From: a virus
Lineage: Duplodnaviria; Heunggongvirae; Uroviricota; Caudoviricetes
Reading direction: 5' to 3' (one strand)
Virus record (IMG/VR): IMGVR_UViG_2671180727_000025
DNA length: 11,520 nucleotides
Part shown: positions 1 through 5,178 of the stretch, piece after piece
Numbering within the stretch: the stretch's first letter is position 1
How the letters are laid out: every line of letters starts with the position of its first letter
Position numbers and translations under genes: made by a program
Notes under the pieces: model-generated
What the model was told of the DNA's origin: nothing
Databases searched by the model: none
The model's input: the letters and a program-made list of their open reading frames with translations, nothing else

Positions 1-17
1 AGGGGAGCATATGACAC

Positions 18-47
18 ATAAAACAAAGGCGACCGGGGGCGGTCGCC
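18..47 (-). terminator. Rho-independent terminator for the leftward regulator gene
   Basis: Perfect 8-bp GC-rich inverted repeat GGCGACCG (28-35) / CGGTCGCC (40-47) with a 4-nt loop; on the - strand it is followed by TTTGTTTTAT (complement of 18-27). Lies about 90 nt downstream of the stop of the - strand CDS 136..438. Confidence 0.55.
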
Positions 48-135
48 AATGGGAAAACACTAAACATAAGCCCGAACATCATAGCGATTTGCTGGCTGGT
101 GGGCAATGTGATCAGTGTGGTGGTTTGCTGGTGGA

Positions 136-438
136 TTATTCCGCTTCTTTGGCCTTGCGACGCTGGAGTTCTTCGCGTGCAACGGTGACAAGTTGCCCGA
201 TTTCTTCCGCTGCTTTGATGCCGATTTGTTCGACCTTAGCCAGAGCATCCAGTGAAGACACAAGGGGATTTTCTCCGCTGCCTTCTGCCTGGCGGCGTGC
301 TATTTCTCCGCGCATGGCGGTTACGATAAATCCTGCATTGCTCTCGCCGTCCAGCTTAACGGATTCCATGCCTTGCATGACATCGTGAGGGACTCTGAGC
401 GTTGTCATTTGAGATTTTGCGTTTTTGTATACGGACAT
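136..438 (-). CDS. Putative ribbon-helix-helix (CopG/Arc-like) transcriptional regulator, divergently transcribed
   Basis: 100-aa ORF with a GGTGA Shine-Dalgarno 6 nt upstream of the ATG (read on the - strand). The N-terminus (TTLRVPHDVMQGMESV...FIVTAMRGEIARR) fits a beta-strand/helix/helix pattern by eye. It sits directly beside the operator repeat array and opposite the rightward operon. Fold assignment is inference, no search was run. Confidence 0.45.
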   Translation of the reverse strand: MSVYKNAKSQMTTLRVPHDVMQGMESVKLDGESNAGFIVTAMRGEIARRQAEGSGENPLVSSLDALAKVEQIGIKAAEEIGQLVTVAREELQRRKAKEAE

Positions 439-456
439 AATTAATCACCAGTTTAT

Positions 457-560
457 TGTGTGTATATCACTATACAGTAAAGTGAGATATAAAAAAACTT
501 GAAATGTATATCACATCAATGTAACGTGTATCTCACATGATGATTATGTGTATCTCATGT
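457..560. promoter_or_regulatory. Divergent promoter/operator region with periodic TGTAT(A/C)TCAC repeats
   Basis: AT-rich intergenic region between divergent genes. Direct copies at 461-470 (TGTATATCAC), 505-514 (TGTATATCAC), 527-536 (TGTATCTCAC) and 549-558 (TGTATCTCAT), plus an inverted copy at 482-491 (GTGAGATATA). Centres are about 22 bp apart. The first site is part of a 16-bp palindrome, TGTATA-TCAC-TATACA (461-476). Confidence 0.6.
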
Positions 561-635
561 ACGAAAAGACGAAACCCCGCAGTGCTGGAACACATACGGG
601 GCTTCTAACCACAAACACTATAGAGAGGTAAATTT

Positions 636-833
636 ATGGTTGCCGTAAATCATACTCCACGACTAGCACACACACAAACGGCCTTTGTGTGGCGTTTTCT
701 GGCCCTGAGTGCCGGAGAATCTCAAATCATCCACGTAACCGCCTGGACGGAACGCGAAGCGCGTAACCGTTGCCCGTCCGGTTGTGTTGCTGTATTTGCC
801 GCCCGTATTCGTCAGGAGGTGCGCCATGATTAA
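636..833 (+). CDS. Hypothetical small protein, first gene of the rightward operon (possibly Icd-like, tentative)
   Basis: 65-aa ORF with ATG at 636 and a GAGAGG Shine-Dalgarno at 623-628 (7-nt spacing). Its stop overlaps the next gene's start. The motif ...FVWRF...VAVFAARI... is loosely reminiscent of Icd-like small proteins of P4-type elements; this is recollection only, not a search result. Confidence 0.4.
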   Translation: MVAVNHTPRLAHTQTAFVWRFLALSAGESQIIHVTAWTEREARNRCPSGCVAVFAARIRQEVRHD

Positions 834-1038
834 TCTGTCACTTACTGACCTTAACCGCATTCAGTTTCGTGAGAAATTCACAGGGCAGCTACTGGTCAAT
901 GTGGATAAAGGTCGCGTGGTGTGTAATTACCACTTACCAGATGAAGCAATTGTCGCCACAAGGGAATCATTACAGGAAATCACAAAACGTGCCGGAATGA
1001 TTAACACGAATATTCAGGGGATGCTTTATGCACAATAA
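826..1038 (+). CDS. Hypothetical protein
   Basis: 70-aa ORF starting at the internal ATG 826 of track ORF 784..1038, preceded by AGGAGG (814-819, 6-nt spacing). Overlaps the upstream stop by 8 nt, suggesting translational coupling. Confidence 0.5.
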   Translation: MINLSLTDLNRIQFREKFTGQLLVNVDKGRVVCNYHLPDEAIVATRESLQEITKRAGMINTNIQGMLYAQ

Positions 1039-1288
1039 AACCACACCGGACGCAGCCGCCGAAGCCATCAAAACGCTGATGCACGCGCTGATTGATATTT
1101 CTGTTATCGCGGACAGGGCACATAAGCACGCCACCAGCGAAACAGAATATGCCGGGGCTTTCGTTCCTCATTCGCTGGCGGTTATGCAACTTAGTGCTGA
1201 TATGGCGCTGAATGAGGCCAAAGCTATCCTGATTGCTGATTGTGAAAATGGGGGGGGGTTATGCGTGATGATCGTTTTTATTCCCTGA
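1028..1288 (+). CDS. Hypothetical protein
   Basis: 86-aa ORF with ATG at 1028 and an AGGGG Shine-Dalgarno (1016-1020). Its 3' end reads through a G9 homopolymer (1250-1258) and overlaps the next gene by 28 nt. Confidence 0.45.
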   Translation: MHNKTTPDAAAEAIKTLMHALIDISVIADRAHKHATSETEYAGAFVPHSLAVMQLSADMALNEAKAILIADCENGGGLCVMIVFIP

Positions 1289-2025: not shown

Positions 2026-3431
2026 AACTGGCACCGAACGTAAAACTATTACCGAAAGACAAATACACCGATGCGATTATTTTTGCGGGTATTGATGCTC
2101 ATTCATTCGCAGAGCATTACATCATTGCACAGGCCAAAAAAGCAGGCGATCCAGTCCCTCCCGTTTATCTGGGGCGTTATCAGTTAAGCGAACTGGATAA
2201 CCTCCAGATTGTTGATGATGGGCGATACAGGGCGACGGTGATACGCGCCGGAAATATTGAAGAGCCGCAGCTGTTAACCATCGCCACGAAACTGGCGATC
2301 GCCGGAGTCCAGGAGGCGCGGCTACTTTCTGAAAATTTCGAATTGCTGGAGGAATGGAGCGACCAGCTTCCACGGCTTAGGGAGGCATGGGAACGCGGGG
2401 AAAGCCTGGTCATGAAAAAAATCCCCCAGCGAAAAACCACGCTACCGATGAGCGTTGGATCTACCGGATACGACACACAGCTTGATTACGTGGTAAAGGG
2501 GATTATTCCGGCATCGTCGCTTTGCAGCATATACGGGGCGAGCGGTTCCTATAAATCATTCCTTGCCGGATCGTGGGCGTGTCACGTTTCCACGGGCCGC
2601 CAGTGGGGAGGCCGCAGGGTGGCGCATGGCGCTGTTCTCTATGTGGTTGGTGAAGGCGGTATCGGCGTTCCGCGTCGTGTAAAAGCCTGGGAGGTTGTGC
2701 ACGGTGAGCAGGTGAAAAATCTGTATCTGGTAAACCGTCCCATCTTTCCGGCTGTCCCGCTTGATGTTGATGAACTGGTTATTGCTGCCAGTCAGGTGGA
2801 GAGGGAAACGGGTAAACCTGTTCGCATGATTATTCTGGACACGCTGGCGCGCTGCTTTGGCGGCAATGATGAAAATGACTCCCGCGACATGGGGGCGTTT
2901 ATCCGTGGGTGTGACGAACTGAAACGACGCACAGGGGCCACGGTGCTGGTGGTTCACCATTCCGGCAAGGATGAGACGAAAGGCGCGCGCGGTTCCAGTG
3001 CATTTCGTGCTTCGCTGGATGCTGAATACCGGATACGCAGGGAGGACGCAGGAAGCGAAGCGCTGGTTATCTCATGCACCAAAATGAAGGACGCGGAGGA
3101 ACTCAAAGAGGCTGCCTATGATTTGCGGGTAGTGGAGCTTTTTACCGACGCTGACGGGGAGTTAATCACGTCGCTGGTGGTGGTGGATAAGCCGCGCCCT
3201 CCCGTTGAACTGGAGCGCATCGAAGAGGCAGGCAACAAGACGGAAAACCATACCGCGCTATGGGGGTGTATCCGTTCACGCACACAGAACGGCGACAAGT
3301 GCACGATCCCGCTGTTACGTGATGACATGAAAAAACTGGGGTACGAAATAAAGCACTTCCGGCGCTGGCTGGGCAAGCTGGAAAAAGACGGCGTTATCTA
3401 TGTTGACGGCGATGATGTAGGGCCACTGTAA
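2022..3431 (+). CDS. Replication initiator/helicase, RepA-like AAA_25 (RecA-fold) ATPase
   Basis: 469-aa ORF. Walker A-like IYGASGSYKS, Walker B-like VRMIILDTLARCFGG, and a downstream VLVVHHSGKD motif are typical of RepA/DnaB-like AAA_25 helicases of plasmids and PICI/satellite Rep proteins. No primase zinc-finger or TOPRIM motif recognised by eye. An iteron array begins 1 nt after the stop. Confidence 0.8.
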   Translation: MKLAPNVKLLPKDKYTDAIIFAGIDAHSFAEHYIIAQAKKAGDPVPPVYLGRYQLSELDNLQIVDDGRYRATVIRAGNIEEPQLLTIATKLAIAGVQEARLLSENFELLEEWSDQLPRLREAWERGESLVMKKIPQRKTTLPMSVGSTGYDTQLDYVVKGIIPASSLCSIYGASGSYKSFLAGSWACHVSTGRQWGGRRVAHGAVLYVVGEGGIGVPRRVKAWEVVHGEQVKNLYLVNRPIFPAVPLDVDELVIAASQVERETGKPVRMIILDTLARCFGGNDENDSRDMGAFIRGCDELKRRTGATVLVVHHSGKDETKGARGSSAFRASLDAEYRIRREDAGSEALVISCTKMKDAEELKEAAYDLRVVELFTDADGELITSLVVVDKPRPPVELERIEEAGNKTENHTALWGCIRSRTQNGDKCTIPLLRDDMKKLGYEIKHFRRWLGKLEKDGVIYVDGDDVGPL

Positions 3432-3634
3432 AAAGTGGGGGGCAAAAGTGGTGGGCATGGGGAATTTAACAAAATTTAAACACGACCCCCCACTTTTTGA
3501 CCTGTATACATCCCAAAAAGTGGGGAGCAAAAAAAATTCTTATGAAACAGTATGATAAAAATTACAAATCCCACGCCTTTAACGAGATGGGGAATTGTGA
3601 AAAGTGGGGAGTAAAAGTGGGTATAGGTGGGGAG
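3432..3634. repeat. Iteron array, putative origin of replication
   Basis: At least seven copies of (A)AAAGTGGGG(A/G): 3432-3442, 3444-3455, inverted 3486-3498 (CCCCCCACTTTTT), 3515-3527, 3599-3611, 3613-3622, and a degenerate 3623-3634. Two repeat clusters flank an AT-rich core (about 3528-3598). Position immediately downstream of the Rep helicase matches rep-ori organisation in PICI/SaPI-type elements. Confidence 0.6.
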
Positions 3635-4618: not shown

Positions 4619-4891
4619 ATGGCACATGACCGCATAGCGGAGGAACTCGAGGCAAAAGGCTTTTACCGGAGGGCGGCGGCGCGATGGGGTGAAGTCATGC
4701 AACTGGTGGAGACAGACAAGGAACGGCATCAGGTTACGATGCGACGGCTGGAATGTTCCAGGAAGGCACAGAGGCCACCGGAGCCGCCGGATAACTTCGG
4801 AGACCTGAGAAAGGCAGTCGATCGCACTTATGCTGAAATGGGTATGGATGGTGTAAGCGATGAAATATGGCGTAATTACACAGACAGCTAA
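4619..4891 (+). CDS. PerC-family transcriptional regulator (tentative)
   Basis: 90-aa ORF from the internal ATG 4619 of track ORF 4499..4891, with a GAGGGGG Shine-Dalgarno (4607-4613). The N-terminal motif AEELEAKGFYRRAAARWGEVM resembles the conserved PerC/Pch N-terminus as I recall it. Followed by a strong terminator. Confidence 0.5.
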   Translation: MAHDRIAEELEAKGFYRRAAARWGEVMQLVETDKERHQVTMRRLECSRKAQRPPEPPDNFGDLRKAVDRTYAEMGMDGVSDEIWRNYTDS

Positions 4892-4896
4892 TCAAC

Positions 4897-4929
4897 AGCC
4901 GGAGCAATCCGGCTTTTTGTTATTTTTTG
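4897..4929 (+). terminator. Rho-independent terminator
   Basis: AGCCGGA (4897-4903), GCAA loop, TCCGGCT (4908-4914), followed by TTTTTGTTATTTTTTG. Sits 6 nt after the PerC-like stop. Confidence 0.8.
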
Positions 4930-5178
4930 TAAATTATTTGTTCGTGGTTGTTCCACGTTGTTCACTGAGCGGATCGGCATATTTTACCCGAACTGAATCA
5001 TGATTATTCTCGCCCGTGGTGCCAGGACGCTGGGGCCACTTTCCCGCCTGTTAATGTGCTCGCCAATATTCATTACCAGGCGGGAAAACGATCGGTGCGA
5101 TTACTGATTTCCTTATGAAAAACGGTTGAGTGTTTGCCGCGTCCTGGAGTTCCTTACTTAACCCCAGGACTTTTTTTT
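4930..5178 (+). promoter_or_regulatory. Leader/control region of the head-morphogenesis operon
   Basis: About 250 bp of non-coding DNA between a strong terminator and the capsid gene. Contains tandem GTTGTTC(C)AC repeats (4947-4965), a candidate sigma70-like promoter (TTGTTC 4958-4963, 16-nt spacer, TATTTT 4980-4985), a perfect 9-bp inverted repeat TCCCGCCTG (5042-5050) / CAGGCGGGA (5077-5085), and a hairpin GTCCTGG (5141-5147) / CCAGGAC (5164-5170) followed by T8 (5171-5178) abutting the capsid ATG. Confidence 0.4.

Follow-up and report, generated by a model that had tools for sequence, protein, structure and literature searches.

An array of five 22-bp-spaced repeats at predicted divergent promoters of an Escherichia coli satellite and its putative YlcI/YnfO-family repressor

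We examined an array of five short repeats at positions 457 to 560 of an 11,520-nucleotide stretch of DNA (IMG/VR virus record IMGVR_UViG_2671180727_000025; hereafter the window, to whose full length all coordinates refer unless a related locus is named). On its gene content, the element in the window is an E. coli capsid-forming satellite of the phage-inducible chromosomal island (PICI) type and not a phage. The repeats are, with a probability that we put at about 0.8, operators of the product of the neighboring gene at 136-438, a member of the YlcI/YnfO family and a putative Arc-like repressor of two back-to-back satellite promoters. The main evidence is that, among related loci, the repeat sequence changes together with a short N-terminal strand of this protein, while the spacing of the repeats is maintained.

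The repeat array and the two promoters

The motif TGTATMTCAY occurs, exactly or with one mismatch, at 461-470 (+), 482-491 (-), 505-514 (+), 527-536 (+) and 549-558 (+). The centers of these copies lie at 465.5, 486.5, 509.5, 531.5 and 553.5, giving spacings of 21, 23, 22 and 22 bp, which bears out the count of four direct copies and one inverted copy about 22 bp apart in a preliminary description of this DNA. The array sits between the divergent genes at 136-438 (-) and 636-833 (+), in an AT-rich setting (GC fraction 0.35 at 401-600). Across all 11.5 kb of the window the motif has eight matches with at most one mismatch, against 1.66 expected, and none of 200 shuffles reached eight; the three matches outside the array (at 1412, 4066 and 8417; one mismatch each) are all isolated. 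Within the 29-kb genomic context of the window (L001), the five sites are the sole cluster of the motif. The five 22-bp-spaced repeats are real and non-random. The sites, promoters and flanking genes are as follows.

461..470, plus strand: O1, TGTATATCAC; touches or overlaps the leftward promoter at its -10 box and start region
482..491, minus strand: O2, TATATCTCAC; inverted, one mismatch, the weakest copy
505..514, plus strand: O3, TGTATATCAC; occupies the spacer of the rightward promoter, immediately 3' of its -35 box
527..536, plus strand: O4, TGTATCTCAC; begins at the final base of the rightward -10 box and lies over the expected start site
549..558, plus strand: O5, TGTATCTCAT; at about +20 of the rightward promoter
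499..527, plus strand: predicted rightward promoter P_R; -35 TTGAAA (499-504), 17-bp spacer, -10 TAACGT (522-527)
469..474, minus strand: predicted -10 box TATAGT of the leftward (ylcI) promoter, placed by cross-locus conservation; adjoins O1
136..438, minus strand: YlcI/YnfO-family gene (100 amino acids), the proposed repressor; also annotated as YlcI/YnfO in RefSeq
636..833, plus strand: Icd-like gene (65 amino acids), first of the P_R operon; NCBIfam NF033153 at 64.9 bits (cutoff 25); annotated in NZ_CP075640

A strict-threshold scan of 350-900 for consensus promoters returned none, and the promoters were placed instead by their conservation across related loci. We collected about 45 such loci (L002-L048), representing many Enterobacterales, from contigs of one genome per species, from assemblies encoding chosen homologues and from complete E. 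coli genomes; the sources include E. coli, Klebsiella, Enterobacter, Yersinia, Serratia, Erwinia, Pantoea, Xenorhabdus and Photorhabdus. With offsets counted from the start codon of the YlcI-family gene, nearly all loci encoding a full-length protein have sites at approximately 25, 47, 70 and 92, and several have a fifth at approximately 114. The preliminary description had named loss of the periodicity in homologous elements as an observation that would speak against it; across the related loci the periodicity is kept. The site at the O1 offset of 25 is present in nearly all of them and the offset-47 site (O2) in most long-form loci, while the fifth site recurs in the common E. coli class described below and in L008, L018 and L024.

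In nearly all related loci, TTGAC[AG]-17-TAnnnT stands at a fixed offset as the conserved counterpart of P_R, which heads an operon running from the Icd-like gene through the replication genes. The leftward -10 offset likewise carries a bottom-strand TAnnnT in other loci (TATAAT, TATACT, TATATT and others). Seen against these two back-to-back promoters, there is one site in each spacer (O2, O3) and one in each start region (O1, O4), so that every predicted -10 box has a site on either side, the two being spaced by 22 bp; O2 also covers the A-rich stretch upstream of the rightward -35 box. The repeated sites overlap predicted core elements of both the protein's own promoter and the divergent one. 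Because the sites bracket both -10 boxes and one of the two promoters heads the replication operon, it is plausible that the array is the switch of the element.

A 22-bp periodicity in an AT-rich setting is also classic for the iterons of plasmid replication origins, and the repeats might on that account be an origin bound by an initiator or helicase loader. We regard this as extremely unlikely. A separate set of repeats, AAAAGTGGGG(G/A)G, in direct and inverted orientation, lies at 3430-3616, directly after the RepA-family gene; PICI origins have been placed directly after the rep gene (PMC6092414), and the 3430-3616 repeats are very likely the replication origin of the satellite, which argues that the array at 457-560 is not. 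Moreover, a single operator class is found with three unrelated replicases (RepA/AAA_25, D5_N primase and DUF927), and the repeats sit on promoter boxes.

That last point bears equally on a second alternative, a centromere-like site. Partition proteins of the ribbon-helix-helix (RHH) type, such as ParR acting at parC of R1 and omega of pSM19035, recognize direct or inverted repeats arrayed on both sides of the promoter of their own gene, repeats that act in segregation as well as in autoregulation, and a ParR-, ParG- or omega-type protein could in principle use the array in this way. The island encodes no ATPase of the ParA or ParM type, however, the element is chromosomally integrated with only three to five sites per locus, and those sites fall exactly on core elements of the two promoters. 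A partition role is accordingly hard to credit.

Repeat classes and the adjacent protein

The repeat sequence varies between loci, while the spacing of 22 to 23 bp is kept and the TG...CA edges of the site are common to all classes. Sorted by residues 11 and 13 of the YlcI-family protein, the motifs are:

M,T (the window): TGTAT[AC]TCA
L,T: TGTGTTTCA
Q,S: TGTGATTCA
Q,N and Q,T: TGG[GT]ATTCA
S,T: TGTAAGACA
[ILMV],N: GTGTG[TC]AT
K,E: GTGGCTGACA

Distant genera that belong to one class carry one motif: the Q,S motif is found in both E. coli and Yersinia, and the L,T motif in E. coli, Serratia, Xenorhabdus and Photorhabdus. Conversely, different classes occur inside E. coli despite proteins that are more than 90% identical after residue 50. 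The DNA-binding domain of the window protein differs from that of the common E. coli L,T class essentially at M11/L14, at His18 and in the first few residues, and two central positions distinguish the operators of the two. Another four E. coli loci, obtained after the code had been formulated, fit it.

We measured the association with a Mantel test (Spearman rho, label permutations). The degree to which the operators of one locus match those of another correlated with identity of the ten-residue strand segment (rho 0.59, with none of 1,000 permutations as high), and showed no correlation with the C-terminal half of the protein (0.11), the Icd-like protein (0.05) or AlpA (0.04). Pairs of loci with the same code at residues 11 and 13 had a mean of 3.25 cross-hits, compared with 0.39 for pairs with different codes. 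Modular co-variation of this kind within conserved flanks is the pattern of temperate-phage immunity regions, and it points to the adjacent protein as the binder. The earlier proposal that the sites are operators of the adjacent RHH-like protein is strongly supported by this comparison, since in approximately 33 distinct related loci the repeats change with the N-terminal strand and with nothing else nearby. In a comparative sense, the loci behave as would be expected if alternate residues of that strand contact bases.

The same data bear on two other candidate binders. The first is the AlpA/Vis-type protein encoded upstream. Excisionase-type proteins bind phased direct repeats. AlpA is the known inducer of Gram-negative PICIs, an activator that is required for induction and activates downstream genes (PMC6092414), and it is again central in work on EcCIMP1 and on capsid-forming PICIs (PMC11773190; 10.1101/2022.09.08.507074). 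Nevertheless, the operator class of the window (M,T) is found with three types of AlpA (those of the window, L039 and L040/L042) as well as with three types of replicase, and one type of AlpA (at least 95% identity) is found with three operator classes (L021, L030/L033 and L039). Eight pairs of loci with AlpA proteins at least 90% identical and different strand codes had 0.00 cross-hits. Binding of AlpA to these repeats is therefore highly improbable, though AlpA might act elsewhere in the region.

The second possibility is that some other factor occupies the sites: the Icd-like protein, a host protein such as LexA, or a protein of the helper phage. The Icd-like protein matches PHROG families 1743 and 6196, both labeled as transcriptional repressors, and TGTATATCACTATACAG at O1 superficially resembles an SOS box. 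Against this, 17 pairs of loci with Icd-like proteins at least 90% identical and different codes had a mean of 0.26 cross-hits, and a host factor cannot account for class switching inside one species. As for LexA, the spacing at O1 is one base too long for the box CTGT-N8-ACAG, and the motif is absent from the other classes. We consider a binder of this sort very unlikely, and prefer the YlcI/YnfO-family protein.

In the product of the 136-438 gene, NCBIfam model NF041551 (YlcI/YnfO), a family with no attached function, matches residues 8-49 across all 42 of its positions at 68 bits, compared with a cutoff of 30. The predicted domain plan is a putative Arc-like DNA-binding domain at the N terminus (approximately residues 8-50), then a linker of Gly and Ser, then a long helix (59-99) at the C terminus. 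An AlphaFold2 (AF2) model of the monomer has helices at 18-27, 34-51 and 59-99, the last of them confident, with low confidence at 1-14; this predicted pattern fits an RHH domain followed by an oligomerization helix, as in Mnt. The family of the DNA-binding domain is small, with 38 cluster representatives at E <= 0.001 among 1.84 billion.

Several weak signals point to the RHH fold. At default thresholds the small proteins had no match in Pfam. Below threshold, PSK_trans_fac, which we take to be a VapB-like family of the RHH clan, matched 18 of 21 members (best E 0.0011), and RHH_1 matched one distant member at 18 bits (cutoff 20.5). The Arc repressor tops the matches of a diverse family profile among 177,635 PDB sequences, with E values of 0.5 to 0.9, and hhalign to Arc gave a probability of 32% in the same register. 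In this register strand residues 11, 13 and 15 align with Gln9, Asn11 and Arg13 of Arc. Arg15 is kept in nearly all homologues and is invariant in alignments A1 and A2, and UniRef labels two homologues 'Arc-like DNA binding domain'. Taken on these matches, membership in the RHH (Arc/MetJ) group is weakly supported. A weak match of the full-length profile, at residues 45-86, to the helix-hairpin-helix of the Hef nuclease (E 0.012; motif VExIGxKxAEEI, window 136-264) was considered and dropped, as AF2 gives one continuous helix at 59-99.

A small set of shortened homologues bears on the 22-bp spacing. Four loci (L016, L017, L047 and L048) encode proteins of 61 to 64 amino acids that end just past the second helix. 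All four have three sites, corresponding to O1, O3 and O4 (offsets of approximately 25, 70 and 94-105), none has O2, and the distance from O3 to O4 is 25 to 36 bp, compared with 22 bp elsewhere. In other words, two-turn phasing goes with the C-terminal helix: where the helix is missing, so is the phasing. This association would be predicted if dimers are coupled through the C-terminal helix, by which the protein would oligomerize. The earlier suggestion that the two-turn spacing reflects a cooperative oligomer gains indirect support here, from a spacing that is kept though the sequence varies and is lost in the four loci without the helix.

Antisense RNA, proposed mechanism and gene neighborhood

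Between O5 and the start codon of the Icd-like gene lies a hairpin that is kept in all loci, and the bottom strand of this region is best described as a candidate SymR-like cis-antisense RNA against the Icd-like gene. The features concerned are:

562..642, minus strand: candidate cis-antisense RNA of approximately 80 nt (642->562), with two hairpins
649..677, minus strand: candidate promoter of the antisense RNA, within the 5' end of the Icd-like gene; -35 TTGTGT (677->672), 17-bp spacer, -10 TATGAT (654->649)
623-628, plus strand: Shine-Dalgarno sequence GAGAGG of the Icd-like gene

The 5' hairpin bears the anti-Shine-Dalgarno and anti-AUG of the Icd-like gene, and the 3' hairpin (605->571) with its U-tract would serve as the terminator. 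In the window the minimum free energy of folding is -31.7 kcal/mol (z -5.8) for the minus strand and -18.6 kcal/mol (z -2.0) for the plus strand; the alignment folds at -22.0 kcal/mol on the minus strand and at -7.2 kcal/mol on the plus strand. Many pairs that are G-U in the minus-strand RNA would become A-C in the opposite strand. Of the 22 pairs in the consensus, 11 show compensatory changes, and its covariation score was reached in none of 500 shuffles; 94.8% of the cells are paired, compared with approximately 40% when the partners are slid. The antisense -10 box is kept as TAnnnT in 22 of 22 aligned loci, a conservation that is ambiguous, as the box overlaps coding sequence. The SymR model (RF01809) gave full-length matches at the same place and on the same strand in the window (32.2 bits), L002 (38.7 bits) and L030 (24.7 bits), against a gathering score of 61, and at gathering score no Rfam family matched the antisense RNA across 15 sources.

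Immunity RNAs of the C4/isrK type have been reported for some PICIs (PMC10111431). These Rfam models have no match at the antisense position. They do occur in one related locus, L021, where P4-type immunity RNAs C4 (75.8 bits) and isrK (81.4 bits) are found at 2280-2465 within an Ash-family gene; since this locus also carries the YlcI-type module, two different control systems can coexist.

We propose the following mechanism. In a dimer of the protein, the N-terminal strands would pair and enter the major groove at each site, of approximately 10 bp and the form TG-N5-CA, with Arg15 reading the constant outer bases and residues 11 and 13 the variable center. The C-terminal helix would couple dimers on neighboring sites two helical turns apart. 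O1 and O2 would then clamp the -10 box of the protein's own, leftward promoter, and O3 and O4, possibly with O5, would clamp the -10 box and start site of P_R, which is predicted to drive the Icd-like gene and the replication operon. The outcome would be autoregulated repression of the early genes of the satellite, with the cis-antisense RNA over the ribosome-binding site of the Icd-like gene as a second lock. Binding, cooperativity, repression and a role in induction are all points that we infer from the comparison of sequences.

A number of observations weigh against this proposal. Assignment to the RHH group falls below the curated threshold in every model tried, a monomer model from AF2 cannot display the intersubunit sheet of an RHH dimer, and a Foldseek search of that model against the PDB returned only noise. 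Judged by its heptads, the C-terminal helix is no more than moderately amphipathic, and the correlation with the short forms comes from four loci. The leftward promoter has no recognizable -35 box (its place is taken by a poor match, a T-tract at 492-497). O4 and O5 are direct in the window, while O4 is inverted in most other classes with its center position unchanged, and the binding unit would therefore have to be indifferent to the orientation of the site. Close relatives of the gene's C-terminal half or of the commonest class were found in only about 5% of complete E. coli genomes. Finally, as AlpA is the necessary inducer in published work, the repressor may be only an accessory layer.

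The genome counts behind this figure are informative in themselves. The C-terminal half of the gene (window 136-300) was found in 254 of 5,426 complete E. coli genomes. For the N-terminal part together with the operators (window 380-570), the common L,T class, with motif TGTGTTTCA, was found in 260 E. coli genomes and the class of the window in two. These counts indicate that the module is optional, widespread and diversified, and the distribution of its classes resembles that of immunity groups, with the window class apparently rare.

The protein might also bind the sites and yet have its main role in keeping a toxic Icd-like gene in check, in the manner of an autoregulating antitoxin, forming with the antisense RNA an addiction module that is carried by the satellite and does not control induction. 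Many RHH proteins are antitoxins, and the weak Pfam matches noted above are to a VapB-like family. The Icd protein of P1 inhibits cell division, the antisense RNA resembles the type I antitoxin SymR, and the module is optional among PICIs. On the other hand, the 136-438 gene and the Icd-like gene are transcribed divergently and not together, P_R also heads the entire replication operon, and the C-terminal half of the protein is a single helix with no evident toxin-binding partner. This arrangement is less likely than repression of the satellite's two promoters by the YlcI/YnfO-family protein, though it deserves to be kept in view as an unlikely but serious alternative.

The wider gene content supports the identification of the element given above. 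The window shares 99.2% identity with an island in the chromosome of E. coli S19-141, located between rcnR and thiM; in L001 the RefSeq annotation places its int gene at 11673 and the end of its last gene at 25815. The left part of the island encodes, in order, an integrase, a hypothetical protein and an AlpA-type regulator; next come a truncated Icd-like gene and then the YlcI/YnfO-family gene on the opposite strand (window 136-438) and the repeat region. After the repeats come the Icd-like gene (636-833), small open reading frames, DUF4222, a RepA-family helicase, SSB and PerC. The late genes encode the major capsid protein, prohead protease, portal, head completion proteins, HNH, and the small and large terminase subunits. 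All genes listed in the definition of PICIs that form capsids (cf-PICIs; 10.1101/2022.09.08.507074) are present, and tail and lysis genes are absent from the RefSeq annotation of the island. A megablast search of a phage database with window 1-1100 found nothing similar.

One further feature lies downstream of the YlcI-family gene.

28..47, minus strand: hairpin GGCGACC/GGTCGCC followed by TTTGTTTTAT (27->18), read from the sequence approximately 90 nt beyond the stop codon of the 136-438 gene

This hairpin is likely to be the intrinsic terminator of the ylcI-family transcript. The truncated Icd-like pseudogene, at 11-133 (+), begins 10 bp past the alpA stop codon and overlaps the 3' flank of the repressor gene. 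The presence of a truncated copy right after alpA suggests that an ancestral alpA-icd operon received an insertion, a cassette consisting of the repressor gene, its operators, the promoters, the antisense RNA and icd's 5' end. Given the layout at 11-133, transcription of alpA converges on the 136-438 gene, and such convergent transcription, running from alpA across the repressor gene, is one possible form of interplay between AlpA and the repressor.

Elsewhere in the window, a hairpin with a T-run directly follows the PerC-like gene (4889-4922), and a strong 17-bp inverted repeat precedes the capsid gene (5040-5087); these probably mark where the early operon ends and a control element belonging to the late (capsid) operon. 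In two related loci the Rfam int-alpA RNA (RF02996) was found near the integrase side, above the gathering score in L013 (7752-7820) and just below it in L007 (7521-7587).

Related systems and significance

The closest parallel by description is the immI region of phage P22, with its repressors Mnt and Arc. In P22 a small RHH repressor gene is divergent from the operon that it controls, the operators lie on core promoter elements, and a short cis-antisense RNA, sar, lies over the ribosome-binding site of a downstream gene; the window has putative counterparts of all three. Mnt has a C-terminal helical oligomerization domain, to which the C-terminal helix of the window protein may correspond. 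Arc is the best PDB match of the family profile, with Arg15 placed on Arc Arg13, a similarity that is not significant (E 0.5). The two systems differ in that Arc and Mnt each use one operator with half-sites one turn apart, whereas the array in the window has four to five sites two turns apart on two promoters; in addition, the window element is a satellite with an Icd-like gene downstream, while the downstream gene in P22 encodes an antirepressor.

NikR, one of several RHH proteins with a separate oligomerization domain, offers a model for the spacing: its N-terminal RHH domain is followed by a C-terminal domain that holds two dimers on sites approximately two turns apart. It differs from the window protein in having a metal-binding tetramer core and one palindrome, in place of a single 40-residue helix and an array, and no homology between the two proteins was detected. 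In omega of pSM19035 and in ParR/parC, RHH dimers bind cooperatively to several short direct or inverted repeats around promoters, and binding of this type may explain why the orientation of sites varies from class to class. Those repeats are contiguous, with a period of 7 to 11 bp, and serve partition or copy control, unlike the sites in the window, which are 22 bp apart with promoter hexamers between them.

In position the window protein resembles Stl/Rpr of Gram-positive PICIs (SaPIs, the pathogenicity islands of Staphylococcus aureus). The gene lies by the int side, divergent from the replication operon, and its product would silence the satellite. Stl and Rpr are, however, larger helix-turn-helix proteins that are released by proteins of the helper phage, and they have no sequence relation to the window protein.

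For the candidate antisense RNA, SymE/SymR is similar in that an RNA of approximately 77 to 80 nt with two hairpins arises from inside the 5' end of its target and covers the Shine-Dalgarno sequence and start codon. The targets differ, SymE in one case and an Icd-like protein in the other, and the SymR model scores below its gathering threshold here. The c4-icd-ant region of P1 likewise places an icd-type gene under antisense RNA control, but C4 acts in trans from a gene that lies upstream on the same strand, and at 562-642 there is no match to the C4 model.

An RHH repressor with an operator array at divergent promoters is of a well-known kind; what is new is the setting, which had no described repressor. 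Our literature searches on YlcI/YnfO, on RHH proteins with PICIs and on Gram-negative PICI repressors found no characterization, and the papers that they returned deal with one regulator only, the activator AlpA. Bro-type proteins and immunity RNAs are named in a survey of PICI gene zones, where term searches did not return a YlcI/YnfO protein (PMC10111431). In a survey from 2026, 'YlcI/YnfO family protein' figures among the accessory genes of cf-PICIs, with no function given (PMC13612085).

A broader hypothesis, which we offer tentatively and hold to be possible though doubtful, is that YlcI/YnfO proteins with a C-terminal helix supply the immunity repressor that has been missing for a sizeable share of Gram-negative PICIs, cf-PICIs and satellites like P4. 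They would fall into interchangeable, lambdoid-like specificity classes set by two strand residues and matched arrays. The helix would hold together the cooperative array with its two-turn spacing and would also be the point at which repression is lifted, whether by a helper phage or by AlpA-driven convergent transcription, and an undescribed family of SymR-like antisense RNAs would gate the Icd-like gene as a second lock.

The locus is a concrete candidate that brings together a named family with no function, its operators, both promoters and a two-residue specificity code. The associated candidate antisense RNA, itself undescribed, adds to its interest. If the module proves to be merely an autoregulated accessory, the protein would be an ordinary RHH regulator. 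If instead its role as a repressor is confirmed, it would explain the silence of part of the Gram-negative satellites, including capsid-forming ones that move between species; it would also predict which satellites cross-repress one another and would yield small orthogonal repressor-operator pairs.

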